A stretch of 64,000 nt of DNA from a virus. Lineage: Duplodnaviria; Caudoviricetes. How positions within the stretch are numbered: position 1 is the stretch's first letter; each line of letters begins with the position of its first letter. Location of the stretch: positions 32,001 to 96,000 of the IMG/VR virus record IMGVR_UViG_3300028797_000007, one strand, 5' to 3'. Shown in pieces: positions 40,207-61,140 of the stretch. The notes below the pieces were generated by a model. The model did no database searches, had not been told where the DNA came from, and worked only from the letters and a program-made list of their open reading frames with translations. The position numbers were made by a program, and so were the translations under genes.

Positions 40207-40604
40207 TTGACTTCATAGGCGTTTTGTAGTATAATTATATTAGAAAAGAAAGAAAAGGGCAAAACTTAAAAAAGGGTACGGGCGGACGCCAGTCCCCCCT
40301 AACCCCCCATTCTTATATTATATCATAAGGAGCTGCATCTTGTCAAGAGTTTTTTAGAAAAAAAATTAAAAAAAATTAAGCAAAAACTATTGACTTTAAC
40401 AGAAAAATTTGATATAATATATATAGAAAAGATGAGAAAAGAATAAACAAAAAAATTCTAAAGCAAAATTAAAAAAAATAGTTGACTTCTTCTTCTGAAT
40501 ATGATATAATATATATAGAAAAGAAAAAGAAAGAAACTAAACAAAAAAGTTTTGCAAAAATCTTTTCAAAAAGTGTTGACTTTCACTTAGAGTTGTGATA
40601 TAAT
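40207..40604 (+). promoter_or_regulatory. Four tandem sigma-A promoters
   Basis: TTGACT-N17-TATAAT at about 40207, 40390, 40482 and 40576. Confidence 0.75.
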
Positions 40605-40680
40605 ATATATGACAATGAAAAAAGTCAAAATTAAAAGGAAAGGGCATTTACATTAGTCGGTAAATGTTAGGGTGATTAAA

Positions 40681-40965
40681 ATGGCTAAAATGGTTGGAAT
40701 GAACAAAAACTACAGAGAAGTTGGAGCAGTATTAAGAACATTTGAAAACGGTGCTGCATTCGCTAGAGAAGTATTAAATAAAATGGAAGGTAGAACTTTC
40801 AACTCAGTTAACGCTACTTTAGCAGCAATGGCTACTAAAGGCTATGTATCAAAAGCAAAAGCAGTATTTGAAGACAAAATGTTAACAAAATACACTTTAA
40901 CTGAAGCAGGTATCGCTGAATTAGATAAACCTGAAGAAGTTCCTGCTGATGAAGATGCTGAATAG
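40681..40965 (+). CDS. Small winged-helix protein (paralogue 1)
   Basis: AFAREVL...TFNSVNATLAAMATKGYVSKAKA.FEDKMLTKYTLT. Confidence 0.7.
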   Translation: MAKMVGMNKNYREVGAVLRTFENGAAFAREVLNKMEGRTFNSVNATLAAMATKGYVSKAKAVFEDKMLTKYTLTEAGIAELDKPEEVPADEDAE

Positions 40966-41216
40966 CATCTTTTTTTTAAAGTCTTTTTTTTATAAAAAAA
41001 ACTCTCCCATTATATATATATTATACCATGAAATACAAGTACTTGTCAACTATTTTTAAAAATTTTTTTAGCGAAATTTTGCCAGGTTTCTGGCATATTT
41101 TTTTCTGGCATATTTTTTGCCCGCCCCCTATATTTTGGTGACGGAGCTGCACCCCGTATTTTGCCTCCGCCCAAAAGGAGCTGCTCCCTTATTAAATGTA
41201 TTAGGGGGCCGCCCCC

Positions 41217-41230
41217 CGAACATATGTTTG
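41217..41230. promoter_or_regulatory. LexA box
   Basis: CGAACATATGTTTG. Confidence 0.5.
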
Positions 41231-41552
41231 GTAAAAGGAGCTGGACCTGAAGCAGAGCAGATGATGGAACAAAGGAGCTGCGGAGCAGCGACCAAAGGAA
41301 TATATATATAATAATAATACTCTCCCATTCTAATATAATTATACACCATCGCGCCAGTGTTTGTCAACTATTTAAAGCAAGATTTAGGATATTTTTTTAG
41401 GGCATAAAAAAAAGAGATAGCGAACACGCGCTACCTCTGTATAGCCCTTAAACTTGACAGGAGCTACCTCTGTTGAGGTACCTCATACCCCACCGCTTTA
41501 TCCCACATATTACCACACATAAAAAAAATAGGTATGTGTAAAATAGGTAGAG

Positions 41553-41807
41553 TATATAATTACTATATATATTACTTATATATAACCTACATATATATTA
41601 TACTTATACTACCTATTATATTATTATTATACCTATTATTATATTACTACTTATTATTACTACATAATATATACTTATACTATATATTATTACTATATAC
41701 TTATTATTACTATATACTAAATACTACTATATACTATATATTACTATATATATATTACTACTTATATTATACTATATATTATATATATATTATACTTATT
41801 TTTACTA
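41553..41807 (+). repeat. G-free A/T/C low-complexity tract
   Basis: About 255 nt of TAT/TAC/ATA units with no G on the + strand. Confidence 0.85.
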
Positions 41808-41899
41808 GATAGTATTTAACTACTTCGTAAACTACAATTTTAGTATATATTTAATTTGGTAGGGTAGTATATTTTATTATATTATACTACCCGCTAATG

Positions 41900-42169
41900 C
41901 TAACGCACTTTTTGTTTTGGTATGCCCCCTTTTAAGCCTCCCTCTAATGAGTAGTTAAGGAATTTAACCATTTCTGTGCCTCTTAGGATTAGAGCTGCCT
42001 TGGTCTTATCTACTACCCCTTTTCTGGCTAATGTTAATACCATTGATTGTGCCTTAAATTCAGTGTAGCCTTTTCCTAGCATATCTGCTATTTGTTTTGG
42101 TGTTGCCATACCTTCGTTTAATACTCTTACGATTTTTTCCTCGTTATGTGTCAACATCATAATGCTCAC
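41900..42169 (-). CDS. Small winged-helix protein (divergent paralogue 2)
   Basis: LTHNEEKIVRVL...TPKQIA...LTLARKGVVDKTKA. Confidence 0.6.
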   Translation of the reverse strand: MSIMMLTHNEEKIVRVLNEGMATPKQIADMLGKGYTEFKAQSMVLTLARKGVVDKTKAALILRGTEMVKFLNYSLEGGLKGGIPKQKVR

Positions 42170-42771
42170 GCTCCTTTCCTTTTTTCCTTAGCATTATTTC
42201 TTTATTACAATTATATTATACTACGACTTGGTGCCGTTTTTCAAGTATTTATTTCATATTTCTAGCATATTTTTTGTAGGTGTGCACTCCTTGCCTTGTT
42301 CCCCCATATTTGGAGGAGGTATCCCTGTACCAGCATATTTGCTGTACGGCACTGGACTGTGTCCGTAAAGGTTTGACAGGACTTGACTACCCGTCCACTA
42401 ATCCCCAAGGACCTACTATATGCAGCCGTTCCTAACGTGTTAGGCCATAACTCGCCTCTTCTTTTAAAGTCAAACGAGGAGAAAACTCGGCTCTGCCTTG
42501 CCTGCCAGGCTTATCCATCGCCCTGATAAGTGGGAACGCTAACCCCACGACCTAGCGTTTAGTCGGCTCGTGTATTTAACCACCCTCAACGAGTCATTGG
42601 AAAGGGAATCACCCCTATTGGTTGTTTGCAAACTAGTGTTTTTTACCTATCCTAATACGCAGTCCCGAAGGCACTGGGATACAAGGTTCGCTTCCTTGGT
42701 CCGCGGTCAAGGATTTAAGATAGCCTACAAAACTTAAATCCCTCAACGCGAACTAAGCAAGTGCTTAGTTA

Positions 42772-42927
42772 TTAGATAGCATACTTTGCTGCTCTTGGAT
42801 TAGCGTTTCTGCCGTGTAACTTTTTGTTAGTCTTGCCTTTTCTAGCTAGGTTTGCTGCTGTTCTCATGAATTGAGCAGAATTTTTGTCTACTACAATTTT
42901 GCTTACAGTTGGTTTTCTTTTAGCCAT
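42772..42927 (-). CDS. Small basic protein, 51 aa, paralogue of 49412..49639
   Basis: MAKRKPTVSK...AQF...NLARKGKTNKKL...NPRAAKYAI; structured leader and own promoter. Confidence 0.65.
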   Translation of the reverse strand: MAKRKPTVSKIVVDKNSAQFMRTAANLARKGKTNKKLHGRNANPRAAKYAI

Positions 42928-43145
42928 TTCGTTCACCCTTCACAGCATTTCTGCCGTGCCTTTCCATTTTATTTTTTCTTTTGTTTTTCTATATATATTA
43001 TATCACTTTTTGAACCTTTGTTCAAGTGATTTTTTAATTTTTTGCAACTTATTTTTTTAGGTAGTTGCCAAACCTTTTTGAAATGTATTTCTTTTTCATT
43101 TCTATAATAATTATATCATTATCAGGTGGCTTTGTTCAAGTCTTT

Positions 43146-43364
43146 TTATTCAAAATTGCTTAAAATTTTGAACTTAGGATTTGGGTCGCCATCTTTGCAA
43201 GTGCAGTTATATAAGTAGATTTCGTGGTTTACAATATTAGCTACGCTATGTAAACTATCATAACTGCCGATTGAATACCAAGTAAACGCAGGATAAATGA
43301 TGTGTCCCTCTTCATCTACTATATCTTTTTCAGCATATCTAAATACTTCCCACATAACTATCAC
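43146..43364 (-). CDS. Hypothetical protein
   Basis: Own promoter and RBS. Confidence 0.55.
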   Translation of the reverse strand: MIVMWEVFRYAEKDIVDEEGHIIYPAFTWYSIGSYDSLHSVANIVNHEIYLYNCTCKDGDPNPKFKILSNFE

Positions 43365-43686
43365 TTTCCTTTCTTTATTACAATTATATTATATCATTTT
43401 TAGGTGGCTCTGTTCAAGTTTTTTAAAAACTTTTTTGTTAAGCCTCCTCGCCAAATATTGACCTCTTTTGTGCACGCGACCTCTCGACAGTGACCATACT
43501 CACCTACCCGACTTACATAGCGAACTGCGTTGGACTCTTGTATGGTATATAGGAGCAGGTCAATCAGTTCCACCACAGCCATTTATCTTTTTCGCCCATA
43601 ATCATTGGACTGACGATAGTTAGGCTTCACTCCCTTTTCCCGAGTATAAAAATCAATATCTGGCGGCGAGGTTTAACTCTCACCTT

Positions 43687-43788
43687 TTAAGGAATAAATA
43701 CCTCAATGACAGAAACTATTAGTAGTATTACGGCAATCAATAAGCAAACTCCCATCATTTTAATATAATGTAATTTATTGCTATTCAT
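43687..43788 (-). CDS. 33-aa hydrophobic peptide
   Basis: MNSNKLHYIKMMGVCLLIAVILLIVSVIEVFIP; GAGGTG RBS and own promoter. Confidence 0.5.
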   Translation of the reverse strand: MNSNKLHYIKMMGVCLLIAVILLIVSVIEVFIP

Positions 43789-43868
43789 AATACCACCTCT
43801 TTCCTTTTTTTCTTTTTCTTTTTACAATTTAATTATACAATAAAAAGGTAGTTCTGTTCAAGTATTTT

Positions 43869-44144
43869 TTAGTTTAATTTTGCTTTAATTATATAATACA
43901 TTTCTACTGTGCCAGTTTCATAAGTTACTTCTAAAGTACCCCTTTCCCTATCTAAATTATAAGTAAACTGATAATCCATTTCCACAGCATCGGCTCTAAT
44001 TTCATCTAAAATATTCATTATTTCAGTTTCTGCCTTTGCTCTAGAGCTATGTAAAGCGTGGTTTTCATTACATATTAAAGTAACTAAACCTTGGTCATCG
44101 TGTTCAAAACCTGTAACAATGTAATAATATCTATCTTTAATCAT
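43869..44144 (-). CDS. Hypothetical protein
   Basis: RBS before ATG 44144; own promoter. Confidence 0.6.
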   Translation of the reverse strand: MIKDRYYYIVTGFEHDDQGLVTLICNENHALHSSRAKAETEIMNILDEIRADAVEMDYQFTYNLDRERGTLEVTYETGTVEMYYIIKAKLN

Positions 44145-44448
44145 ACTATCCCCTCTCCTTTCTATATTTTCTTTCTTTTTTCTAAATATATTATAATATA
44201 AAATGCTACCTCTGTTCAAGTCTTTTTTACCCTAAAATTTACATATCATTTTTAAAGCGATTTAAGGCACCGTAGAGCGACGAAATAGTTTTAATGATAA
44301 ATTATATTAAAAAAATATTAAAAGCTGTTTATACTAGCTCATTTCGCTTTATATGAGGTATTTATACTTCATTTAAAAAAAATATTTTTTAAAACATAAA
44401 AAAAGATAGGTCGGTCCTATCTTTCTATATCAATCTATCCCCCTACTA

Positions 44449-44703
44449 TTATTCAGCGTCTACTGAAACAGTATATTGAGTTAACATCTTGTCGCCTGAA
44501 ACAGCTTTAGCTTTAGTAGCTAATCCTTTTCCAGCACAAGCAGCTAGAGTAGCATTTACAGCATTGAAAGTTTTTAATTCAGTTCTATCTGCATAATTTT
44601 CGTCTAAGTATTCTAATACTTCACGAGCAAATGCTTTTCCTCCTAATTCTTTTACTGCATTGATAGCAGTTTCCATTTTACCTGTAACTTTTACTTCGTT
44701 CAT
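44449..44703 (-). CDS. Small winged-helix protein (paralogue 3)
   Basis: AFAREVL...TFNAVNATLAACAGKGLATKAKA...DKMLTQYT. Confidence 0.7.
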   Translation of the reverse strand: MNEVKVTGKMETAINAVKELGGKAFAREVLEYLDENYADRTELKTFNAVNATLAACAGKGLATKAKAVSGDKMLTQYTVSVDAE

Positions 44704-46308
44704 TGTTTTCACCCTTAACAATTAACTTGTCCCTTTCTTTTAATTTTTACATATATATTATAACACTTTTTTAACCGACTTTCAAGTGTTTTAATCATTT
44801 TTTTTAAGGTCAACTTTCGTTAGTTTCATCTCGCAACATCAGGTAGGGAATCACTCCATGCCCTTAGCTAAAAGAGCCGCCCACAGGTAAACCTTAATGG
44901 GGGGTCGCTATATCCCCAATGAAGACCTCGTAAATTAAGCAATATATACTTGCTTATTACGAGATTTTAAGTAAAAAACCTAAAACCCCCTAATAAATAA
45001 GTATATAAACGCCTAGTTGAGTGACTTGGTTGCCCGTCTGCTCAACTAGACGGAGGGAAGTATTAAGACTATTCCTAATCAGTGAGTAGCTTAAGTATCT
45101 GCACCTTTCGCCGTAGTCAACGGATACTCACACTTTCGCTAGCAGTGAGCTGCGTTGGTATGAAAGATTTAGATTTATAACACTGGTGCTCTTCATACAA
45201 GGTTCGCTACAGTCGTAACTCGGACACCTCCTTATGTGAAATTTACTAGGTAAAGTACACATCTGCCCTTTGTTTTGTATTTCGCACTCTGGTTCACTTT
45301 TCTCTTTCATTTTCTATATATATTATAACATTGTTTAATAGCATTCGTCAACTATTTTTTTAATGTTATTTCCAAAAAATAGATGTCCGCCCAAGGACTT
45401 TCACCAAGGGACGCCAACTCGAGGTTCAAAACAAATTACTGCTAGATGACCTGTTCGATTACCCTCTATATGAGCTGACCTTTATTTTCTTTCGTGTGTC
45501 TATATTCCACCACGGACAATAATTATGAAAGGTTGTGATGCCACCCCAATTTTAACCACAGTCTCTGGCACTAGGTGAACTTAATCTCCTAGGAGGGTTC
45601 GGGCCCCCGTGCGTCTTCCTTATTTCAAAGCTACGCGGTGGCATGTATAAACTAATTAAATGAGAACCTTTCGCATTTACCTTAAACCGATTAAATCGGG
45701 TGTAGAAATGGTAGCCTCGTCACTATACTTGGTATAGTAATTCTCACAAACTATTTTTCTTTCTTTCTAAAATAATTATATCATTTAACACTGCCTCAAA
45801 TCAAGTTTAAAACTTAAATTTGACTACTTAAATTTCGTTCGGTGTGTTAGAGAGGTTTTTGTTAACCATATTTATCAAACATCTCATAAAACTATGGTGT
45901 ATTCTTTTAAGTAAGGATTTTTCTCTTATGGTTATGACTCAAGGTCTACCAGCCTTACTATGGCTCACTTTCCAAATATTTCTTTTTCATTTGATATATA
46001 TATTATATCAAATATTTAAGATAATTTCAAGTTTTTTATAACCCATTTTTATCAAAACTTTTAAAATCTATGGGGCATTCTTTTTGATACTTTATTTCAC
46101 CGAAGTTACTGCATATCGGGCTCGCTTTCCAATTTCCTTTTTTTCTTTTTCTATATATATTATATAATATTTTGAATGCTTTTTTCAAGTCTTTTTTTCA
46201 AAATATTTTTCACAAAACGGTTACCCCGTTTTATTTTTTTCTTTTTCTTTTTTATTACAATTTAATTATATTATATTTCGCTACCTTTTGACAAGTATAT
46301 TTTTTAAT

Positions 46309-46915
46309 TTTATGCTCTTTGAAAAATAAAAGTATATGGTAGTCTTCCTACTAAGGTATTACATAAGATGAACTTCAGTCACCAGAGAGTTAAATGCCTC
46401 ATAAAGGAGCTACCTTTATTTCTACTTAACCCACACAAATGTGCCGGAGCTGGATGGGATTGGTACCCATTACTTTCACTTGTAATTTAGGCAATTTTGA
46501 TACCGCAATCAACGCCCTTGTCGCAGTCTTAAGCTACTCGCACTATCTTCCGTGTCTTATACCCATATTACTATGGTTCAGCTGCGACACTCGCTTATTG
46601 GTAATTCAGCTTCCCCTCTTGCCCACCACAGGCAGTGGTTCCACAGTCTCTCTCTTAAATATGGGGCTACCCATACCTAAGCCGTCAAGATGACGAGCGA
46701 CTGGAAGATATACTTTATCCACAATATATAATCCCCACAATCTACTTTCTTTTCAACCTATTAAAGTCGTCTTGTTATTTAGTTGCCTAAATAACCGTCT
46801 CCATCCATTGCTAAGTCTCCCAAGCAACTAAGAAGGGGCTGTAGATTTCCACCCCCTGACTACAATCAGGGTTTTTCAAGTGGTTCATACAATTTTATTT
46901 TTCAAAGAGCATAAA
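46309..46915 (-). ncRNA. Large structured ncRNA, ROOL-like (about 600 nt)
   Basis: Perfect 23-bp terminal inverted repeat; GC-elevated non-coding interior with many hairpins; size and tRNA-cluster context fit ROOL; family resemblance is from memory only. Confidence 0.45.
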
Positions 46916-47663
46916 TATTGTCTTGGTGGCGGCCACGCCGTTAATGTATTAAATCAATTAACATTGTGGTGGCTTCGCCTCGTCAAGACTATATATATTT
47001 AAAAAGGTTGTGAACTTGGAGATATAATCTCCTATGAATATTTTAGTGCCTCCGAGACTTACGCTGGGGCTGAGAATCACCTCTTATCCAAATGCTTCTG
47101 GGACTTATATAAAATATTCATAGCAAACTATATTTCCTACAACGCAGACCCAAACTCACTCCTACGGACTGCTGGGAGACCTCGTACTGTAAGAGCTGTA
47201 AAACAACTCCGCATCTCCGTTTCCACACCTTAATACTCCGATAGAAAATTGAGCATTCAACACGAATTACGGGCTAGCGGCCAATGCTGGGTAATCAATC
47301 CTCGGGCGGCAATTTCCGGCTGACGGTCTGTAGTCTCAATTCCCTATCGCAGCACTAAGGCTGCTTAGAAAAAATGGAATACTTAATCGGGGATTAAAAC
47401 CCCTGTGAGAACAACGCCTGACTCGGGTAGGAGCCGTAAATATCCCCTGCACTTACCGGGTAACCGTTGTATTGTTCTCACAGCGATTTTAATCACTTTT
47501 CTTTCTTTTTTTCTAAATATATTATAATATAAATTATAACCTTTTTTCAAGTATTTTTAACATAATTTTTATTTGGTTGCTTGTTACCTATTCTTTTTAA
47601 TCCTACTCCGAATAATCACTCCGATAGAAGGAAGAAACCTGTTCCCTGTTATCCAAATAAAAA

Positions 47664-47740
47664 TGGCGCCCCAAGTAGGACTCGAACCTACGACCTAACG
47701 GTTAACAGCCGTTCGCTACTACCAACTGAGCTACTGAGGC
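47664..47740 (-). tRNA. tRNA-Asn(GTT)
   Basis: Cloverleaf with encoded CCA. Confidence 0.92.
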
Positions 47741-47745
47741 AAAAC

Positions 47746-47821
<76 letters not shown>

Positions 47822-48047
47822 ATGTATAGCGTCGGTTTTATAGGTAAACCGACAAACTTAATGGAGATAAAAAACTGGTGAAGTATGTCTAGCATACTCC
47901 TATCAAAATATTATCAGGTGGAGCGGTCCTATCTCCACGCTTTAACACGGCGTCGCCTTCCCACATTAGGTAATCAACCCTTGCTTGCAGCCTGCTCTAG
48001 TTCCCCGGCAAACAGATAATATCTTGATAGCAATATGCTAACACATA

Positions 48048-48341
48048 TTACTTATTTGCTCTATATTTCTCCCAGAAATCAGAAGTAACAATGAAGTCAT
48101 TCATTTCTACCCATATTTTATTAAAGGTATATATTGCGAATGCTGTTTCCCAAGGCACAATTCTATTTCTTTCAGGTTGTTCTTTATCACATAACTCATA
48201 CATATAATACATTATGCCATCTCCACGACCTTTTTGTATTTGACGGGCATAAAATCTATCCCCGAATACATCTTCAAATAGTTGCTTGTTTAATCTTTTT
48301 ATATTACGATTAACCAATCTATCGTCCTTGGTCTTGCTCAT
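48048..48341 (-). CDS. Hypothetical protein
   Basis: Own promoter and RBS. Confidence 0.6.
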   Translation of the reverse strand: MSKTKDDRLVNRNIKRLNKQLFEDVFGDRFYARQIQKGRGDGIMYYMYELCDKEQPERNRIVPWETAFAIYTFNKIWVEMNDFIVTSDFWEKYRANK

Positions 48342-48417
48342 TATAATCACTCCTATTCTTTCTTTTTCTAAATATATTATAATATATTTCTCTAGGAGAT
48401 TTCAAGTTTTAATAGAC

Positions 48418-48633
48418 TTATTTTTTAATTATTTTATTAGCGTCCAATGTTACGCTGTTATGAAACGCATGGATAACATTCTTTAATAGTCCAACAGCTG
48501 CGAATATGAAGTAATATCCTGTTATAGTTAGTTCAGGACCTCCTAATTGAGCAACTCCTTTTATAAAGAAATTACCAAAACCAAATAAGTTTAAAAACCA
48601 CGCTACAAATAGCATCCAAATAATACTTAACAT
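48418..48633 (-). CDS. Small two-TM membrane protein
   Basis: Hydrophobic ORF, GAGGAGG RBS. Confidence 0.6.
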   Translation of the reverse strand: MLSIIWMLFVAWFLNLFGFGNFFIKGVAQLGGPELTITGYYFIFAAVGLLKNVIHAFHNSVTLDANKIIKK

Positions 48634-48747
48634 TATTCTTCCTCCTCATTATCTTTCTTTTTTATTTTACATATATATTATATCATAAAAAAATAAGAGA
48701 AATCAAGTCTTTTAATAAATATTATCTAACTTAATTTCTCTTTAGGA

Positions 48748-49170
48748 TTAGTCTAGTAAATTTAGTACTTCTTCAATGATTTCTCCTCTATAAAGACCTG
48801 TGTTTACAACAGTATCAAGGCTATAAAGATTATTACTAATATCACTAGCAATACTGCGTGCGATATCTTTTTCTTCTTGAGAAAGTTTACTGGGAATTTT
48901 TTCTTCCCTGTCATCTTCATCGTCCCAATCTTCCTCGTCTTCCTCATCATCGTCCCAACTATCATCATCATAGTCGTCGTCTTCCTCGTAATCATCGTCG
49001 CTGTCATAATCATCATCTTCGTAGTCTTCGGATTCAATCCAACCATTTTCTACTAAAAATGTTTTGAAATCAATATCAGCGTCTTCATGAGCTAGCATCT
49101 CACGAATATCTCCAATAGATTTTTCTAATAGTTCTTCTAAACTATCTTCTGTCCAGTTAATATTAGCCAT
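48748..49170 (-). CDS. Highly acidic protein
   Basis: About 45-aa D/E/Y/W tract. Confidence 0.65.
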   Translation of the reverse strand: MANINWTEDSLEELLEKSIGDIREMLAHEDADIDFKTFLVENGWIESEDYEDDDYDSDDDYEEDDDYDDDSWDDDEEDEEDWDDEDDREEKIPSKLSQEEKDIARSIASDISNNLYSLDTVVNTGLYRGEIIEEVLNLLD

Positions 49171-49172
49171 AA

Positions 49173-49397
49173 TTATTCTCCCTTCATCTTAAATTTTTCT
49201 ATTTCTTTTTTGGCTATCTTATCTTTAGCCTTGTTTTTATAGGTTCTATTATCTAAACACCATTGGCATTCCCATTGATGTCTGCGTCCACCATGATTTC
49301 TACAATGTCTGTCTACTGCTTTTGCAAAAGATTGTCCTTTTGTCCCATATTCAGTTCGGTGTTCTTTACCACTTTTTATTGCTTTGCTAAGAGACAT
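49173..49397 (-). CDS. Small basic Cys/His protein
   Basis: KSGKEHR...CRNHGG...CQWC. Confidence 0.65.
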   Translation of the reverse strand: MSLSKAIKSGKEHRTEYGTKGQSFAKAVDRHCRNHGGRRHQWECQWCLDNRTYKNKAKDKIAKKEIEKFKMKGE

Positions 49398-49411
49398 AGT
49401 CTCACCTCCTA

Positions 49412-49639
49412 TTATGAGGCTGCTACTTCACTCTTTCTATATTTTTTACCAGAACCTTTTGGATGAGCCTTGGCATATTCAGCTGCTGCGTCCTTAAGTT
49501 CTTTACCTTTAACTGATAAATACTTAGATGCCATAGGGTTGCTTTTTAATTTCTTATTAGTCTTACCCTTTTTATCTAAATTAAATTGAGTAACAGAGAA
49601 TTGTGCTTCTCCACTTTTACTTGCTTTTCTCTTTGCCAT
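49412..49639 (-). CDS. Small basic protein, paralogue of 42772..42927
   Basis: MAKRK...AQF...NLDKKGKTNKKL.SNPMASKY. Confidence 0.65.
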   Translation of the reverse strand: MAKRKASKSGEAQFSVTQFNLDKKGKTNKKLKSNPMASKYLSVKGKELKDAAAEYAKAHPKGSGKKYRKSEVAAS

Positions 49640-49709
49640 TTTAATCACCTTTCTTAATAATATTATATTATATATTTATACCTTTTGAAAAGTATTTAAC
49701 TCAAATTTA

Positions 49710-49796
49710 TGGTGGGAAACAGAGGATTCGAACCTCCTCAACCAAATGGTATTTGATTTACAGTCAAACGCGACTCGCCATCTTCGCCGATTTCCC
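49710..49796 (-). tRNA. tRNA-Tyr(GTA)
   Basis: Cloverleaf with long variable arm, CCA. Confidence 0.9.
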
Positions 49797-49806
49797 ATAA
49801 AAATAA

Positions 49807-49866
49807 TGGCTGGATTTATCCACTTTCCTATGACCCCCGAAGGCGCCACCCGGATTCGAACCGGGG
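49807..49866 (-). ncRNA. Circularly permuted tRNA-like module (YrlA/Y RNA-like order)
   Basis: T arm, then acceptor stem closed by UUCG, then UA, then D arm. Confidence 0.45.
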
Positions 49867-49913
49867 ATTGTTAACTTTCTACCTCTCCTATTTCAAGCAG
49901 GTTCCCATCATTT

Positions 49914-50270
49914 TTAATACTTCGCATTTGGACAATCTCTCTTGTATTTATCTTCAAATGCTTGTGTTTTAAAAGCACCCGTATTCATACAAACTAATTC
50001 AAAAGACATATAATAGCAATCGTTATCATTCATATAAGAATATACTGATTGACCTGGCTGTAATTGTTGCTCAGGTAATCTAACATTTTGCTCTATTCTA
50101 TCTTCTGCGACATTCTCGTCCAAAAAGTCCCTTTGTTTTATATATTCAATTAACTTGATGTATCTATTAAGAGCAGCCTTATAATTAGTACCAATATATT
50201 CTATTATACTCTCGTAGCCATCATATTCCCTTGTATACATAACTATATAAAACGGTCTTGTTCCTTTCAT
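49914..50270 (-). CDS. Hypothetical protein
   Basis: ATG 50270 just downstream of tRNA-Leu. Confidence 0.6.
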   Translation of the reverse strand: MKGTRPFYIVMYTREYDGYESIIEYIGTNYKAALNRYIKLIEYIKQRDFLDENVAEDRIEQNVRLPEQQLQPGQSVYSYMNDNDCYYMSFELVCMNTGAFKTQAFEDKYKRDCPNAKY

Positions 50271-50296
50271 TTTATACACCAACTTTCTCTTTAATT

Positions 50297-50384
50297 TGGT
50301 ACCGGCCGTGGGACTTGAACCCACACACCCATTGCTGGATAACGGATTTTAAGTCCGTTGCGTCTACCATTCCGCCACACCGGC
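50297..50384 (-). tRNA. tRNA-Leu(TAA)
   Basis: Cloverleaf, long variable arm, CCA. Confidence 0.92.
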
Positions 50385-50604
50385 ATATATTTCCCCCTGT
50401 ATTGTTTGTATCCCCAGGAGCTGAGCCACTCCCCTAGTTTCGAACCTAGAGTATTCTAGCTGGGAACCTTCTTCTCTCATCTTATAGAAGTCAAGCACCA
50501 TATATGAGAAGTGAAAATCTCTTTTTCATTTCTAAATATATTATATAATAAAACCCCGCCTATTTTCAAGTATTTTAGCATAATTGACGGGGATAAATTT
50601 CGAA

Positions 50605-50679
50605 TGGCTGCCGGAGCTGGATTCGAACCAGCGCATCCATGAGTCAAAGTCATGTGTCTTACCGCTTGACTACCCGGCA
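50605..50679 (-). tRNA. tRNA-Gln(TTG)
   Basis: Cloverleaf, CCA. Confidence 0.92.
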
Positions 50680-50684
50680 ATAAA

Positions 50685-50764
50685 TGGTCGGATTGGCAGG
50701 ATTCGAACCTGCGAGTTCTCCTGCTCCCAAAGCAGGCGGGGTAACCAAACTCCCCAACAATCCG
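50685..50764 (-). tRNA. tRNA-Pro(TGG)
   Basis: Cloverleaf, CCA. Confidence 0.9.
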
Positions 50765-51072
50765 ATAATGTTGAGAAATTCACCATCTCTGTTTTGTTTC
50801 CTCACAGCCACATCCAAGCTACGACTTTCACGTAGCACTTCATCCCCTAACATACCCGTCCTCATAATAATCAATTATAGGCAATTATAGGAGCTAACTC
50901 CCTTAGGCGTCTTTTTACACCGGCATTATCCTCGTGGATAGGGTCTAGAATTTCTCTATATAATAAGTGCGAACTGTGGCTTCTTGTCCTTTAGGTCAGT
51001 CTTTATCCTAGTCCTCACACTCCCCAAGGTCGACTGGGCTGACTTGGATGCTAGGTTACACTTATAAACTAA

Positions 51073-51148
51073 TGGTGGCTTCAGGTGGAATCGAACCACC
51101 GACACAAGGATTTTCAGTCCTTTGCTCTACCAACTGAGCTATAAAGCC
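51073..51148 (-). tRNA. tRNA-Phe(GAA)
   Basis: Cloverleaf, CCA. Confidence 0.93.
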
Positions 51149-51392
51149 ATATATAAAAACGGCATTTTGAATAGTAATATTGTATCTTAGGTCAAGTAGA
51201 TTTTCTCCGTGAATTACAGTCCGTTACCAGAGCTGCGCTTTCGCTTCAAAATTACGACATGGGGTCACCCCTCATATAACTTGATTACCACTTAGTATAC
51301 ACTTTAATCTATCAAAATTAACGCTCCGGACTGTTTCAGTAGTTAGCTAAACCGAGTTTCCTCACCGGAATGACGCGCCGTTACTATCAAAA

Positions 51393-51469
51393 TGGTGACG
51401 AGTATGGGATTCGAACCCATGAATGCTGCCGTGAAAGGGCAGTGTGTTAACCAATTTCACCAACTCGCC
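51393..51469 (-). tRNA. tRNA-Glu(TTC)
   Basis: Cloverleaf, CCA. Confidence 0.92.
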
Positions 51470-51760
51470 AATTTTAGTAGTTTTTCATGAGTTTACATGG
51501 AGCTCTCTAGCACTACAAACTCCTTTCGCCTGAAACATATTACTCCCGTCACGGTATCATCGCTTCTTTATATTATAGACGCTTCGCTCGCCGTGTGTTT
51601 TCAGGTAGGGATATGCCAATATACCAATTTGCTCGGGCGTCGGAGTTCAAATAACAAGTCACCGCTCTAGCCTTTACCTTCCCCGTAAGATTTTCAGTTA
51701 TTTGCTAATTGTATATCCTTCGGGTATCAAATTGGCATATTGCCATATCTCTACAAATAA

Positions 51761-51838
51761 TGGTCCTCGCTCTAGGACTCGAACCTAGGACCCCTTGCTT
51801 GTAAGGCAAGTGCTCGTAACCAACTGAGCTAAGCGAGG
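51761..51838 (-). tRNA. tRNA-Val(TAC)
   Basis: Cloverleaf, CCA. Confidence 0.9.
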
Positions 51839-51957
51839 ATGGCTCCCGAACTCTTCCATTCGGGCTCTACTCTTAGGGCATAACTTCTTCTGTTTCCTAA
51901 GGTTAATCGCTCTTAAGTTGCGACGCACTATCTATATTAAATTATATTATTATCAAA

Positions 51958-52033
51958 TGGTGGAGAATAGGAGATTCGAACTCCTGACATCTACCTTGCA
52001 AGGGTAGCGCTCTACCAACTGAGCTAATTCCCC
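51958..52033 (-). tRNA. tRNA-Ala(TGC)
   Basis: G3:U70, cloverleaf, CCA. Confidence 0.93.
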
Positions 52034-52227
52034 AAATGGAGCCGGATGGGCAGGAGTCTCACCTGCTTAGTAGCCTAGGACTATTATTCTCACCGACATA
52101 TATAATAAAGGTAAAGCATGCCGTTGGAGTCCCGCCCATCAGTGCTTTTTTACAATATAAGAGTTCTACTTTATACCCGAGGGCATTCAGTATAACATAC
52201 CTCTTTCTTAAACCTTAATAAACAAAA

Positions 52228-52303
52228 TGGTGCCGGCTTCAGGACTTGAACCCGAAACCTACTGATTACAGGTCAGTTGCTCTACCGATTGAGCTAAGCC
52301 GGC
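52228..52303 (-). tRNA. tRNA-Thr(TGT)
   Basis: Cloverleaf, CCA. Confidence 0.93.
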
Positions 52304-52306
52304 AAC

Positions 52307-52381
52307 TGGCGGTTCCAGGGGGAATCGAACCCCCATCTCCTGCGTGACAGGCAGACGTCATAACCACTGGACCATGGAACC
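52307..52381 (-). tRNA. tRNA-Asp(GTC)
   Basis: Cloverleaf, CCA. Confidence 0.92.
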
Positions 52382-52382
52382 A

Positions 52383-52456
52383 TGGAGCGGATAGAGGGAA
52401 TCGAACCCTCGTCAATAGCTTGGAAGGCTATAGTTCTACCATTAAACTACACCCGC
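52383..52456 (-). tRNA. tRNA-Gly(TCC)
   Basis: Cloverleaf, CCA. Confidence 0.93.
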
Positions 52457-52733
52457 ATATAATGTGAGGCCACGGTCCTCACGCGTGCTTTTTCCTGTTA
52501 ACTCAGCGGTTAGCCTTTAATCTAAGCAAATCACACTTAGCAAACCTGTGCCGTTTTATTTATATCAACAGCTTAAGCTGTTAATAATAAAGTTCATTGC
52601 CTTTCTCACTGTCGCTACGCGGTGGTCGAGCTTTCACGGGCAGTCCGAAAACCTCCGAGGGCGCTTATCTATTTAGTATTTTTCTTAATTGATAAATCAA
52701 TTATAGCATATTTTTTAGCCTAAAATCAAGTAT

Positions 52734-53009
52734 TTATTTATCTAAAATGCCATAAATTGCATATGGGGTAACAGTATATTTATTTAATACTCTTCCCTTG
52801 TAAAGAACTTTTTGACTCTCAACCAATGAGTTATCTCTTAGTCTTAACATTGCCCAAGTGATTTCATTGATTGTTAGTTTCTTTAGGTCTTCGTTTTCAC
52901 AATCAGCTAGGAGCTGAGGTCCAAAAGCTGAACCAGCAAACTCGTCAGCTAAAACCTTTAATACTAAATCTTGTTTATAACTTAATTTAATTGGTTCAAA
53001 CTTCTTCAT
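52734..53009 (-). CDS. Small winged-helix protein (paralogue 4)
   Basis: LSYKQDLVLKVL...AFG...LTINEITWAMLRLRDNSLVES.K....LNKYTVT. Confidence 0.65.
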   Translation of the reverse strand: MKKFEPIKLSYKQDLVLKVLADEFAGSAFGPQLLADCENEDLKKLTINEITWAMLRLRDNSLVESQKVLYKGRVLNKYTVTPYAIYGILDK

Positions 53010-53077
53010 AATCTCACACTCTTTTCTTTTTTATCTATAATAATTATAATATAAAAAGGTATAAGATTTCAAGTATT

Positions 53078-53416
53078 TTATCCAATATAAGTGCTTAAAA
53101 TATCATTTTCAGCATAGCGATGATTACCCAATATATGAGGACGCTCTACAGTGAGAATACTACCATCTCCCCTGTTATAGAAAAACCATTGTATTTCCCT
53201 AATATTAGGATATAATCCTTGCCCTATTTGTTCTATAACGGCATAATTATAATAACCATCTTCAAATATATCTCCACGATTTCGTGAGATACAATCAAAT
53301 GCTTCATCTAATTTACGGAAGTACCCAGGAGCTCTGTCATGAGGTATCACATCGTGTATCTCAAATAATTCTCCATCAGGAACTTCATTTATTTTTAATG
53401 TGCGAACTAAAAACAT
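53078..53416 (-). CDS. Hypothetical protein
   Basis: GAGGTG RBS; GDIFEDGYYNYAVIE motif. Confidence 0.6.
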   Translation of the reverse strand: MFLVRTLKINEVPDGELFEIHDVIPHDRAPGYFRKLDEAFDCISRNRGDIFEDGYYNYAVIEQIGQGLYPNIREIQWFFYNRGDGSILTVERPHILGNHRYAENDILSTYIG

Positions 53417-53437
53417 AATCACACCTCATTTCAATTT

Positions 53438-53523
53438 TGGTGCCCCCTACAAGACTTGAACTTGTACGCCCAAAGGACACGTGCTTCTAAGGCACGGGTG
53501 TCTACCAATTCCACCAAAGGGGC
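53438..53523 (-). tRNA. tRNA-Leu(TAG)
   Basis: Cloverleaf, long variable arm, CCA. Confidence 0.92.
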
Positions 53524-53524
53524 A

Positions 53525-53986
53525 TTATTTAAGCATATTTAATGCTTTTTGGTAGTCATAGATAGTGAAACCAAGCTGACTGTCACATCTTACTAAAAAT
53601 GGTAACAAATGACACATATCGCTATCATCATCTATGATAACAAATTTCCCTTTAAACTGATTTTCATCTATCCATCGTTGTATTTCTACACCTCTTTGTA
53701 GATATAGTTTTGGAGTTTTTCCAATAACTTCTATTTCAGGATTAAAACCTGACTTAATTAACAGTTCTTGGAGCTGTGCTATATCCATACTATAACGCCA
53801 AGTACTTGTTATAACTATCTTATAAGGAACTTTTTTATAAAGTTCATTTAACCAACCAATGGCTTGTTTATTATTTAATTCTTCGTGACCAAATTTATGC
53901 ACATTGTATGACCAAGTACCATCTTCGGCTTTTTCCCAATAAATGGTTTCGACCACACCGTCAAAGTCTAAAAAAACTATATTCAT
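53525..53986 (-). CDS. HAD-superfamily phosphatase (HAD_SAK_2, RNA-repair type)
   Basis: FLDFDGV, ITSTWR, RG.EI..W, VIIDDDSDM; true start at ATG 53986. Confidence 0.8.
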   Translation of the reverse strand: MNIVFLDFDGVVETIYWEKAEDGTWSYNVHKFGHEELNNKQAIGWLNELYKKVPYKIVITSTWRYSMDIAQLQELLIKSGFNPEIEVIGKTPKLYLQRGVEIQRWIDENQFKGKFVIIDDDSDMCHLLPFLVRCDSQLGFTIYDYQKALNMLK

Positions 53987-54008
53987 AAACTCACCACCTA
54001 TTTTAAAA

Positions 54009-54085
54009 TGGTGCAGGAGGTAGGACTTGAACCCACGACCAGAGAGATATAAGCTCCCCACTCTAACCAACTGAGTTACTCCTGC
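54009..54085 (-). tRNA. tRNA-Ile(TAT)
   Basis: Anticodon loop CT-TAT-AT; body similar to the adjacent Ile(GAT). Confidence 0.85.
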
Positions 54086-54090
54086 AAAAA

Positions 54091-54167
54091 TGGTGCAGGT
54101 AGATGGACTCGAACCATCGGCAGCTCGCGTATCAGACGAGTACTCTAACCAACTGAGTTACACCTGC
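54091..54167 (-). tRNA. tRNA-Ile(GAT)
   Basis: Cloverleaf, CCA. Confidence 0.9.
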
Positions 54168-54296
54168 AAGTGACGGAGGGTATAAAGTAGCCCTCCCCTC
54201 TACATATTTTTTTCGGCTTTACCTATATGTCGGGTTCCTAAAAGTAATCAACTTTCTCCGACAGGAGGTAACATTTGTTCTAAACCCTATATATAA

Positions 54297-54518
54297 TTAT
54301 CTTATTTTTCTTAATGTTTTTGGCTTTTCCTCTGGTTTTGTATAACCAAATTCACTTGCTATTTGTTCCAATGTTATTTTATTATTTGGAACCCAAATTC
54401 TACTAGCCAACTCATATGCAACAATATTAACTAAATCTTGTTGCGAAGTCCCTGCTGCTAGATTTAGTATATTTATAAGTTGATAAGTTGGAGTTGTTTT
54501 TAATTCTTTTTCTGTCAT
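54297..54518 (-). CDS. Hypothetical protein
   Basis: AAGGAG RBS. Confidence 0.6.
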   Translation of the reverse strand: MTEKELKTTPTYQLINILNLAAGTSQQDLVNIVAYELASRIWVPNNKITLEQIASEFGYTKPEEKPKTLRKIR

Positions 54519-54539
54519 TAGTATCTCTCCTTATAAATA

Positions 54540-54616
54540 TGGCGTCCTGTCAGGGACTCGAACCCCAAACCGATGCCTTAGAAGGGCATTGCTCTATCCA
54601 GTTGAGCTAACAGGAC
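54540..54616 (-). tRNA. tRNA-Arg(TCT)
   Basis: Cloverleaf, CCA. Confidence 0.92.
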
Positions 54617-54618
54617 AA

Positions 54619-54843
54619 TTATTTTTTCTTTTTTGCTTTTGTATATACTTTTGGTTGTTCTTTAACTTGTCCAATTATATTAAAATCTTCTCTTGCAATA
54701 ACTTCATCGCCCTGTCCATCATTTTTTATAACTAAATAACCAGCATAATGTGGTGCAAAATCTTGTAATTTACCCCAATCATTTTCTCCAAATGGATAAG
54801 GACCTTCGTATACATAATCAAAATTTTTTAAATATAACCTCAT
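54619..54843 (-). CDS. Hypothetical protein
   Basis: GGAGGA RBS before ATG 54843; the upstream part of the track ORF is tRNA sequence. Confidence 0.6.
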   Translation of the reverse strand: MRLYLKNFDYVYEGPYPFGENDWGKLQDFAPHYAGYLVIKNDGQGDEVIAREDFNIIGQVKEQPKVYTKAKKKK

Positions 54844-54866
54844 AATTATGTCCTCCAAAAAATTAC

Positions 54867-54953
54867 TGGCGCCCAGTAGAGGACTCGAACCTCTAAGCCG
54901 TTTCCGACCAACGGTTTTCAAGACCGCCCGACTACCAATTATCACAACTGGGC
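54867..54953 (-). tRNA. tRNA-Ser(TGA)
   Basis: Long variable arm, G73, CCA. Confidence 0.88.
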
Positions 54954-54957
54954 ATAA

Positions 54958-55033
54958 TGGTGGGAACACAGGGACTTGAACCCTGGACTCCAAAATTAAA
55001 AGTTTTGTACTCTACCTACTGAGTTATGTTCCC
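54958..55033 (-). tRNA. tRNA-Lys(TTT)
   Basis: Cloverleaf, CCA. Confidence 0.9.
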
Positions 55034-55396
55034 ATTTCTTAATTTTTCATGCTCCTCGGCATGACAATTACTACAAAGTAACTGGCATTTGTCTACTTCT
55101 TTTTCATAATCTTTCAAAGAATGAAAAGTAGCTGCTATACCAAATTCCTTATTTGAGTTTGGGTGATGAAAATGTAAGGCATCTATACATTTATTATACC
55201 CACATATTTCACATTTACCCCCTTTATAATTTACAAGGTATTTTTTGATATTCCTGTGTTTAACATTCATGGCTCTTTGTTGCTGTTCTCTATTACCAAG
55301 TTCATATTGTGGTACACACTCAAAACAATATTTTCGTGTATGACCATATTTTATAGTTTCAAACTCATTGCCACAAAGTACACATATCTTTTTCAT
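55016..55396 (-). CDS. HNH endonuclease
   Basis: CEICGY...LHFHH...LLCSNCHAEEH; stop codon lies inside tRNA-Lys. Confidence 0.8.
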   Translation of the reverse strand: MKKICVLCGNEFETIKYGHTRKYCFECVPQYELGNREQQQRAMNVKHRNIKKYLVNYKGGKCEICGYNKCIDALHFHHPNSNKEFGIAATFHSLKDYEKEVDKCQLLCSNCHAEEHEKLRNGNITQ

Positions 55397-55417
55397 AATT
55401 CACCTCTTTTAATCTTT

Positions 55418-55513
55418 TGGCAGGGGCTATAGGATTCGAACCCATACCCCGGGCTTTGGAGACCCGTCTTTACGGTTTTGAAGACCGCTGTGCTACCATT
55501 ACACTAAGCCCCT
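55418..55513 (-). tRNA. tRNA-Trp with two anticodon arms: UCA (reads UGA) and CCA
   Basis: AGGGGCT TA GTGT-AATGGTA-GCAC A GCGGT-CTTCAAA-ACCGT AAAGA CGGGT-CTCCAAA-GCCCG GGGT ATGGG-TTCGAAT-CCTAT AGCCCCT G CCA. Confidence 0.85.
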
Positions 55514-55521
55514 ATATAAAA

Positions 55522-55597
55522 TGGGGTAAGATAAGAGACTTGAACTCCTCCCTGCAGTGCCACAAACTGCCGTACTAACCTCTATACTAATCTCACC
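55522..55597 (-). tRNA. tRNA-His(GTG)
   Basis: G-1, C73, CCA. Confidence 0.9.
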
Positions 55598-55630
55598 ATA
55601 TAAAATGGGGCCTAGAAGCCCCTTGTACAA

Positions 55631-56440
55631 CTAGTTACCTATTCCAAATAGAACATTTGAACTATCCCCCAACATAGTAGTAGGATATTTTCCGTCCCAT
55701 TTATTTATAAGTGCTTCTTTGATTTCTAATTCTTTTAACTTTAATGTTTTGTCAGTAATTTCTTTATTTTGTAATTTCATAACCTCAGCTTCAGCTTTAG
55801 CGTTTTCAACTTTCTTTTCGTTTTCAACTCTTGCTTTTTCTAACTCATATTGAGCCTTTTGAGCATTTTGTTGAGCGACTTGTTTTTGTTCTATTGCTTG
55901 ATTATAAGCATCACTAAATGCTAAGTCTGTAATAGAAAGGTCTACAATAGTAAACCCCCTGTTTTGTAGTTTGTTAGTTAATGTTTCATACATTAAAGCT
56001 GATACTTCTTGTCTTTTAGTAATAAGTTCTTCAGCTGTATATTTAGCAGTAACTGATTTTATACTTTCTAATATAGCTGGGTTAACCACAACAGCTTCAT
56101 AATCTACACCTACAGTTTGATATAATTTATTAGCATAATCCTTGTTAACACTATAATTAACAGCAACTTTTAGATTAACATCTTGTAGGTCTTTAGAAGC
56201 TGCACCGTTATCAACTTCAACTTTTTTAGTTCTACAATCCATCAACACAATTTTTTCAATGTAAGGAATTTTAAAGTTAATACCTTCGTTTAGCATATCG
56301 CCTTGAACCTTACCAAATTGTGTCTTAACTCCTACATAACCTGTAGGGACTGATTTAAAACTAGCAAATAAAGTTATAATAACAAAAAGAATAATAGCAC
56401 CTATAATAGAATATTTAACCACCTTAGTTTCATCAACCAT
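55631..56440 (-). CDS. SPFH/prohibitin (band 7) membrane protein
   Basis: N-terminal TM, VPTGYVGV...GINFKIP, SKDLQ, AIEQKQVAQQ, KWDGKYP. Confidence 0.88.
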   Translation of the reverse strand: MVDETKVVKYSIIGAIILFVIITLFASFKSVPTGYVGVKTQFGKVQGDMLNEGINFKIPYIEKIVLMDCRTKKVEVDNGAASKDLQDVNLKVAVNYSVNKDYANKLYQTVGVDYEAVVVNPAILESIKSVTAKYTAEELITKRQEVSALMYETLTNKLQNRGFTIVDLSITDLAFSDAYNQAIEQKQVAQQNAQKAQYELEKARVENEKKVENAKAEAEVMKLQNKEITDKTLKLKELEIKEALINKWDGKYPTTMLGDSSNVLFGIGN

Positions 56441-56479
56441 GGTTAACTCCTTCCTATATAAGATTATTATTATCAAAAA

Positions 56480-56570
56480 TGGCGCCTGCTATAGGACTCG
56501 AACCTATGCGTCGATTACTCGACCTAGCTGTTTAGTAGACAGCCCCCTTAACCAACTTGGGTAAACAGGC
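56480..56570 (-). tRNA. tRNA-Ser(ACT)
   Basis: GCTGT-CTACTAA-ACAGC anticodon arm, long variable arm, G73. Confidence 0.82.
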
Positions 56571-56886
56571 AAAAATTAAACAACGGGGGTTACGGCCCCC
56601 CGTTGGGGATTTCATGTATCTCCTACAGAGAGTTTCTGGGGTTATATATATAGTAATATTATAACATTACTATTAAAATTATATAATATATATATCCTTA
56701 CTCACAACCTCGGTTATGTCCACCGTGGACAAAGACTGTCCTAACCCAACAATCTTTATAATGGGGTGGAATTACGATTGCCACGCATGCTTACGATGAG
56801 TATTTTTATCTTGGCCCAAGAACTCATACTAAACTTGCTTATAAAGGCCCTGGACTTATATAGCTTGTAATACTAATGCCATTAAA

Positions 56887-57108
56887 TTATTCAGTTACTA
56901 TTGCAGTAAACTTAGTTTTCATCTTGCCATCAAATTCAGCTTTTTCTTTAGATGCTAAACCTTTAGTTGCTAAAGAACTTAAAGTTGCTCTAACTGATTG
57001 AATAGTTAAACCTTCAACTTCATTGATAACTTCTTCGGCAAAAGCACCATCAGCGAATTTTTCTTTTAAGATGTTTAAAATGTTTTCTTGTTTTTCAGTT
57101 AATTTCAT
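56887..57108 (-). CDS. Small winged-helix protein (paralogue 5)
   Basis: LTEKQENILNIL...AFAEEVI...TIQSVRATLSSLATKGLASKEKAEFDGKMKTKFT. Confidence 0.7.
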   Translation of the reverse strand: MKLTEKQENILNILKEKFADGAFAEEVINEVEGLTIQSVRATLSSLATKGLASKEKAEFDGKMKTKFTAIVTE

Positions 57109-57324
57109 TTTTTTCACCCTTAAAAACTATTTGTTTTTCCTTTCTTTAATTTTTACAATTTAATTATATCAAATATCAGAGCTAATTTCAAGTATTTTTT
57201 GAAAATTTCTGCTCTTCTATAAGAACATATCGTCTGAAACCAACATAGCCATCATTGGTCCGCACGATGCTCTGGCCTCCGGATGTTGAAGATATATCCT
57301 TATAGAAAAGCAGAATTCTTCTTT

Positions 57325-60635: not shown

Positions 60636-61140
60636 AATTTAGCTATATACACAGACGTGTGTGATATAAGGTTACAACTGGGACCAAACTACCAGTGATG
60701 CCCTGATGCAGGCTAAATTGAATGCATCGGCCTATTATGGGGATGTTTCGGTTTCGACAGGAACTAACGAACACTCATGAAACAAGTCGCAGGTATGCGT
60801 TAAATCCAAACCTAAAAAAATAAATGGAAACATTTTTTCTAAAATCGCTAACAGAGTAAAATCTGTTTTCACTGCAAATGCAGTTGCTTTAGCATAGTCT
60901 AAGGCGTAGGCGACTTTCATATGAGTAGTCAGGAAGTGGACAGACAAAAATATGAATGTATTAACTTAGCAAGGTCCACCAATATTGAGATTTCCTAAAA
61001 CAATTTCTCTATTGATTTACTAAAAGTTTTAGGCTACCCCCAAGATTTGTTAATTGGGTAGGGTAAGTAGATAGAACGAAATTAACTAAGCTTGTAAGAA
61101 AGTAATGACTAGTAAATTGGTTTTTGGACACGAGTTCGAT

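Follow-up and report, generated by a model that had tools for sequence, protein, structure and literature searches.

A covarying hairpin in the leaders of four early phage genes, and the possibility of a split Shine-Dalgarno sequence

We describe a conserved leader that precedes four early genes in a 64,000-nucleotide window of phage DNA (positions 32001-96000 of IMG/VR record IMGVR_UViG_3300028797_000007, a complete virus record of 111,499 bp with direct terminal repeats and 32% G+C), in which a hairpin is held between two purine flanks, GAAAGG and GGGUGA, shortly upstream of the start codon. Its covariation among related phages and the distribution of its G-U pairs show that the hairpin has been selected as a sense-strand RNA structure. 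We propose, at a probability of about 0.42, that the leader is an extended Shine-Dalgarno (SD) sequence split by a looped-out hairpin of free sequence, and that it would act in cis as a module on monocistronic units of promoter, leader, gene and terminator. Tentatively, a single 16S rRNA 3' tail would pair with the two mRNA segments that flank the hairpin and form an mRNA-rRNA three-way junction, an undescribed geometry of ribosome recruitment that Firmicute phages might use for a few very highly expressed early genes and that might double as 5'-end protection.

A flanked hairpin maintained by selection

At each of the four sites the parts follow one order: a promoter, an A/G-rich leader with a terminal GAAAGG, a hairpin that starts at the very next base, a 2-nt linker, GGGTGA, five nucleotides and the ATG. 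An earlier note on this DNA had described such a leader before the ATGs at 40681(+), 42927(-), 44703(-) and 57108(-), and all four read as it claimed, with the stems that it listed. Its observation that the hairpin sequence is unrelated between copies, with pairing, flanks and the 5-nt spacer kept, is likewise borne out at the four sites; the 5' flank that it gave as AAAGG is present, and is more precisely GAAAGG lying flush with the stem. The modules occupy the following positions in the window.

40638..40683, plus strand: site 1 module, with GAAAGG at 40638-40643, an 8-bp stem at 40644-40651/40660-40667, the loop at 40652-40659, the linker at 40668-40669, GGGTGA at 40670-40675 and the ATG at 40681
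42925..42964, minus strand: site 2 module, with GAAAGG at 42964-42959, a 7-bp stem and GAAA loop at 42958-42941, GGGTGA at 42938-42933 and the ATG at 42927
44701..44737, minus strand: site 3 module, with GAAAGG at 44737-44732, a 5-bp hairpin at 44731-44717, GGGTGA at 44714-44709 and the ATG at 44703
57106..57144, minus strand: site 4 module, with GAAAGG at 57144-57139, a 6-bp A/U hairpin at 57138-57122, GGGTGA at 57119-57114 and the ATG at 57108

The genes behind sites 1 to 4 are here called P0001 to P0004. Three of them (P0001, P0003 and P0004) encode mutual paralogues with a predicted winged-helix fold and 41-51% identity, and the fourth, P0002, encodes a basic protein of 51 amino acids; the earlier note had named three winged-helix paralogues and one small basic protein.

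The string AGGGTGA-N5-ATG occurs five times in the window against 0.11 expected, and its fifth copy (13289-13303, minus strand) lies within a coding region, without promoter, GAAAGG or hairpin; GGGTGA ahead of a start codon is limited to these leaders in this genome. A flush hairpin of at least 4 bp appeared in 2-11% of composition-matched shuffles of the inter-flank segments per site, giving a product of ~1e-5 for the four sites. In an exact pattern scan across IMG/VR, used only as a background sample, the matches listed included 119 chance co-occurrences of both flanks, eight of them with a flush hairpin, and two of these eight were relatives of this phage. The hairpins of sites 1 and 2 fold better than shuffled sequence (z = -2.2 and -3.7, respectively), and those of sites 3 and 4 are weak singly (-2.2 and -1.8 kcal/mol; z = -1.2 and +0.2), so that the reality of the latter two rests on comparative evidence. 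An alternative fold at site 3 (window 44701-44726, minus strand), which pairs the 3' arm with the spacer and start codon at -3.9 kcal/mol versus -2.2 kcal/mol for the claimed hairpin, is unconserved in orthologues and was rejected.

Protein-guided searches of IMG/VR yielded orthologues of all four genes in ~12 contigs, several of them complete genomes of 110-120 kb, and gave a set of 26 distinct leader instances, the window's included. A profile search for more distant winged-helix relatives returned the same contigs only. Across the 26 instances GAAAGG is invariant and the 3' half is GGGTGA in nearly all, with linkers of 0-1 nt on the 5' side and 1-3 nt on the 3' side and a distance from GGGUGA to the ATG of 4-8 nt (5 in the window). 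Flanked in this way, the stems (4-9 bp) have unrelated sequences and the loops span 3-11 nt, and the upstream leader and the spacer vary while the flanks do not.

Pairing is kept through this turnover. In the P0001 group (12 sequences), 96.8% of cells are in standard pairs compared with 66.1% after shuffling, and none of 500 shuffles reached the observed value. Moreover, 7 of the 8 stem pairs have changed on both sides, many of the differences being single compensatory steps, and sliding the partner by 1-3 columns lowers pairing to only 27-38%. The closing pair is G-U in 10 of the 12 sequences, and the group as a whole holds 12 G-U cells versus at most three other departures from Watson-Crick pairing; since the departures are nearly all G-U, the structure is placed in the sense-strand RNA. 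The P0003 and P0004 groups contain at least three unrelated stems each, all of which pair. Flank conservation and selected pairing are established by these comparisons.

Compensatory change on this scale makes it very improbable that the hairpin is a functionless passenger duplicated along with its promoter-leader-gene cassette. The four sites show evident homology in their promoters and leaders, and some orthologues have no hairpin, both of which suit a passenger; yet double changes in 7 of 8 pairs and pairing preserved through complete turnover are unexpected for neutral sequence, and it is the flanks that stay invariant beside a variable upstream leader and spacer.

The G-U cells bear equally on a DNA-level operator, in which the inverted repeats would be palindromic sites for dimeric winged-helix proteins that autoregulate transcription by roadblock. 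The MarR/PadR-like fold of the products and the location of the repeats just 3' of promoters are in keeping with this idea. The asymmetries, however, are almost all sense-strand G-T (the 12 G-U cells against at most three others), as for RNA and unlike duplex DNA; the arms vary freely among orthologues with an invariant recognition helix, the spacers range from 3 to 11 bp, and genes that do not encode a winged-helix protein carry the module too. We give a DNA operator hardly any credence.

Nor do we favour the shared translational operator that the earlier note had suggested, here taken to mean that a trans-acting protein (a phage product such as the winged-helix paralogues or P0002, or else a host factor) would bind the hairpin in the ribosome-binding site (RBS) and repress or time translation. 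A hairpin within the SD is an ideal position for a repressor, the module is present in just 3-4 cassettes per genome, mostly ahead of one paralogous family, and the loops of the P0001 group (alignment loop columns 24-34; window 40652-40659) are semi-conserved, with UAGUC(A)G or GCUAUAG-like words despite full turnover of the stems. Against this, no stem or loop sequence is common to the four sites, the loops of the P0003 and P0004 groups are unconserved, P0001 orthologues with an identical recognition helix have stems that differ at nearly every position, the module also stands before unrelated genes, and the products have a predicted DNA-binding fold. Protein-bound operators of the T4 gp43, RegA and gp32 type require shared sequence or loop determinants, whereas the stems and loops here are unrelated between sites and variable within groups; a lambda-type nut/boxB element would bring a conserved GNRA-like pentaloop and a boxA, whereas a GAAA loop is found at site 2 only and the other loops are unrelated and 5-11 nt long. 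We therefore hold a translational operator to be improbable.

The distribution of the module across genomes is narrow. A whole-genome pattern scan of four complete relatives gave exactly three matches per genome, all of them these leaders, and 0-1 matches for the reversed control pattern; with these and the 26 instances, the conservation in related phages on which the earlier note had staked its proposal is found. The module is limited to 3-4 cassettes per genome, within one clade of uncultured phages, and the regulon that the same note envisaged exists as these homologous promoter-leader cassettes and in no further sense. Neither a relaxed regular expression nor a covariance model yielded further sites in the whole 111-kb genome. 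The model (R1) was built from the P0001 group; in a MAFFT alignment of the full set of 26 leaders the flanks were displaced by one column, and no general model was derived from it. The scan that the earlier note had recommended recovers the four sites, but also scores plain SD leaders without a hairpin and adds no new true site. R1 gave two additional matches in this phage, at genome coordinates 28180 and 99823, which were discarded because they fall in coding or non-start sequence.

The hairpin form also alternates with a plain one. The P0004 orthologue of L016 has a plain extended SD in place of the hairpin form found in L015, L017 and L018, and an extra paralogue in L171 has a plain extended SD, its counterpart L001b having the hairpin. 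For P0002, the hairpin leader is confined to the closest homologues, and distant ones have either a plain continuous GAAAGG...AGGTGAT or other hairpins. In contigs that are more distantly related, the same layout precedes unrelated genes, namely two small genes in L029 (3' half AAGGTG) and a 134-aa gene in L096. As for the other hairpins, three distant P0002 homologues (L031, L037 and L040) bear leader hairpins of different kinds: in two of these, CCUC is paired with an SD-like GAGG(U) ahead of the real SD, and the third is a stem-loop at the 5' end.

Several further candidates were dropped. An upstream open reading frame (ORF) starting from the ATG beside the -10 box is unconserved and reads ATG-TAA in many relatives. 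No T run follows the stems on the 3' side, as a terminator or attenuator would have; the stems are too short for RNase III sites; and the 3' half has no GGA, as CsrA-type sites would.

Complementarity of the flanks to the 16S rRNA tail

At the gene starts of this phage, all the overlapping 6-mers that make up the complement of a Firmicute-type 16S 3' tail are over-represented (GAAAGG, for instance, at 12 versus 0.7 expected and AGGAGG at 33 versus 0.8 expected), and because of this enrichment the host's anti-SD most likely ends in CCUCCUUUCU, the tail sequence of Bacillus-type 16S rRNA; the host's own 16S may differ. The flanks of the leader are complementary to adjoining parts of such a tail: (A/G)GAAAGG complements its last seven bases (CCUUUCU), and GGGUGA complements the six bases immediately 5' of these (UCACCU), with one G-U pair. 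Neither flank has the usual GGAGG core, together they tile abutting, non-overlapping rRNA segments, and the hairpin is placed precisely at the point across which an uninterrupted 13-nt SD would continue. GGGUGA stands as far from the AUG as a normal Firmicute SD does, and start-proximal UGA(U) pairing with rRNA has been documented by cryo-electron microscopy of the S. aureus ribosome (PMC13009471).

When each of the 26 leaders was cofolded with a 15-nt tail of the assumed Bacillus type (RNAcofold), 25 had the three-way junction as their minimum-energy complex, with both halves paired and the hairpin kept. The predicted energy of the junction averaged -14.3 kcal/mol, compared with -8.0 kcal/mol for pairing of the 3' half only and -8.3 kcal/mol for the 5' half only; SD duplexes across the phage's genes have a median of -10.6 kcal/mol. 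Complementarity and predicted energies are, on the assumed tail, likewise established.

We propose the following mechanism. The 5' flank (A/G)GAAAGG would pair with CCUUUCU, the last seven bases of the host 16S rRNA, and the 3' flank GGGUGA, itself at the normal distance from the AUG, with UCACCU immediately beside them. The hairpin would loop out as the third arm of a three-way junction, a single anti-SD tail would hold both halves at once, and the result would be a very strong initiation site. Because the leaders are short, a bound 30S subunit would cover nearly the whole 5' untranslated region (UTR), and the message would be shielded from 5' exonuclease. We infer here that both halves bind simultaneously to the same ribosome, that this is sterically feasible and that yield or stability is affected. 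The split SD was also the first of the readings offered in the earlier note, and is partly supported: the complementarity, the constant junction, the cofolding energies and the switching between forms all fit it and leave the mechanism itself unproven. That some orthologues have the hairpin form and others a plain, uninterrupted extended SD supports a split SD, as do the hairpins of sites 3 and 4, which are too weak to be nuclease barriers on their own.

The same flank could also act as a leader stabiliser, GGGUGA being the sole SD and GAAAGG a separate SD-like 5' element that, with the hairpin, slows attack by RNase J1/Y in a way that does not depend on initiation at the AUG downstream. Nearly all early promoters, those for non-coding RNAs among them, are followed by a polypurine start, GAAAGG lies within a few nucleotides of the predicted 5' end in L013, L014, L009 and L004, and the distant P0002 homologues L031, L037 and L040 have their other hairpins at other positions in the leader. 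Furthermore, Bacillus offers established precedents in STAB-SD and the SP82 polypurine stabiliser, as cited in PMC3997798. However, GAAAGG is without the GGAGG core used by known stabilisers, the hairpins at sites 3 and 4 amount to only ~-2 kcal/mol, and nothing in a stabiliser calls for a flush, invariant spacing to the hairpin and SD or for two halves that match neighbouring stretches of the rRNA. We consider it unlikely, though deserving of serious attention, that stabilisation accounts for the leader.

Several points weigh against the split SD itself. The host 16S 3' end is deduced only from SD word usage, and the fit of a three-way junction in the cleft of the 30S platform is a presumption of the model. 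The A/G-rich start is common to nearly all early transcripts, non-coding ones included, so that a general polypurine tract might simply end in GAAAGG, and GGGUGA is by itself already an adequate SD (~-8 kcal/mol). All instances may stem from one ancestral cassette, in which case the constant junction geometry does not represent many independent events. In addition, the hairpin has been lost in some orthologues with the gene retained, and the semi-conserved loops of the P0001 group are not needed by a split SD and are explained by none of the models.

Promoters, genes and the early region

The four leaders belong to an early region at window 40-58 kb that contains ~30 consensus sigma-A promoters, many small genes, a tRNA array and several non-coding RNAs. 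Searches among cultured phages by megablast and tblastn gave no match, and hence no host assignment. The promoters and genes of the four cassettes are as follows.

40576..40604, plus strand: site 1 promoter (-35, 17-bp spacer, TG-extended -10), the last of three in tandem
42997..43025, minus strand: site 2 promoter
44757..44785, minus strand: site 3 promoter
57163..57191, minus strand: site 4 promoter
40681..40965, plus strand: P0001, a 94-aa winged-helix protein with an acidic tail; terminator-like hairpin at 40951-40972
42772..42927, minus strand: P0002, a 51-aa basic protein with no family match
44449..44703, minus strand: P0003, an 84-aa winged-helix paralogue; terminator-like hairpin at 44426-44400
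56887..57108, minus strand: P0004, a 73-aa winged-helix paralogue

All four sites are preceded by a consensus promoter whose spacer is 17 bp and whose -10 is TG-extended, and 18-33 nt of A/G-rich leader separate it from the terminal GAAAGG. Terminator-like hairpins close at least sites 1 and 3, which makes the units monocistronic cassettes. Homology is plain among the promoters and leaders of sites 2-4, and the module has therefore probably spread as a promoter-leader cassette. Judging from their promoter features, the cassettes with the hairpin leader may be the most strongly or the earliest expressed.

The predicted structure of P0001 is a winged-helix fold (mean pLDDT 82.7), with MarR/PadR/HxlR-type regulators as the best structural matches (TM 0.6-0.7); searches of the products against Pfam and PHROGs gave sub-threshold matches only. 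A fourth, distant winged-helix paralogue (window 52734-53009, minus strand; E = 2.4e-5 to the family profile) is preceded by a plain leader without a hairpin. Rfam models gave 27 matches in the window, none on the four leaders.

The surrounding region has further features of its own. Most other early promoters have an 18-bp spacer, as against the 17-bp spacer and TG-extended -10 at the four hairpin-leader promoters (40576, 43025, 44785 and 57191). Upstream of P0001, at window 40390-40604 (plus strand), three near-identical consensus promoters stand in tandem, 92-94 bp apart, the first two without an ORF of their own, and facing consensus promoters at 40207 (plus strand) and 40346 (minus strand) read, one from each side, through a ~60-bp G+C-rich island in surroundings of 32% G+C. 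At window 45300-47550 and 50540-52730 (minus strand), an A/G-rich transcript start resembling ATATATAGAAAAAGAAAG is common to nearly all early promoters; those at 45351, 45804, 46030, 46188, 47550 and 50569 have it too and run into ORF-less sequence, and a GGAAAG(Y)GAG word lies ~30 nt downstream of several ORF-less early promoters. This shared A/G-rich start with GGAAAG(Y)GAG may be a general 5' stabiliser or the beginning of a repeated non-coding RNA.

Among the structured RNAs of the region is a ROOL RNA at window 46319-46907 (minus strand; 186.8 bits). The OLE RNA model matches a 155-nt piece at window 51164-51318 (minus strand; 102.5 bits), inside the tRNA array, over model positions 437-594 only, which is odd on a phage. 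A tmRNA lies at window 60747-61142 (plus strand).

Known systems and significance

The closest tested system is the split translation initiation region (TIR) of T4 genes 38 and 25, in which a hairpin between SD and AUG restores functional spacing (Nivinskas 1999; Malys & Nivinskas 2009; PMC3014915). By our analysis the leader would act similarly without being a member of that class. In both cases a hairpin in a phage mRNA is looped out and non-contiguous parts of the RBS act together (here as a proposal), and in both the arrangement is kept in close relatives and absent from distant ones. The T4 hairpin, however, separates a complete SD from its AUG and makes up for a spacing that is too long (22-27 nt), whereas GGGUGA here is 4-8 nt from the ATG (5 in the window), at no supra-optimal distance. 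The intervening hairpin with conserved pairing that marks the T4 type is present, but would join two halves of an SD and not an SD and its AUG.

A second comparison is with 5' polypurine stabilisers, namely STAB-SD of B. thuringiensis cry3A (Agaisse & Lereclus 1996) and the SP82 element (Hue et al. 1995), both as cited in PMC3997798. They resemble the 5' flank in being SD-like polypurine stretches in Gram-positive leaders that are complementary to the 16S 3' end and have no start codon of their own. GAAAGG is such an SD-like element of a 5' UTR, complementing CCUUUC at ~-8 kcal/mol and followed by a hairpin and not a start codon. The stabilisers have a GGAGG core and act far from the start codon without a fixed relation to it, unlike the leader described here, which has just GAAAGG, flush with the hairpin and in a constant position with respect to the true SD.

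Extended SD-anti-SD helices of Firmicutes, as seen by cryo-electron microscopy in S. aureus (PMC13009471), use rRNA bases outside CCUCC, including UGA(U) pairing, and G-U can replace A-U in them. The proposed pairing is alike in these respects; those helices are continuous, whereas this one would be interrupted by a hairpin. A full-text literature search found no account of an SD interrupted by an internal hairpin. The split-SD mechanism that we propose from sequence and thermodynamics is specific and testable, and apparently undescribed.

If it is true, SD recognition need not involve a single continuous helix, and structured inserts would be tolerable, or even exploitable, inside an RBS. This would matter for gene prediction and for calculators of RBS strength, which would score these leaders as medium-strength GGGUGA sites, and would bear on the design of synthetic leaders for Gram-positive hosts, as well as on how lytic phages express small early proteins stably and at very high levels. 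Should the split-SD reading be wrong, the leader is still a clean RNA motif, supported by covariation and without an Rfam family, in a clade of uncultured phages whose regulatory elements have so far gone undescribed.

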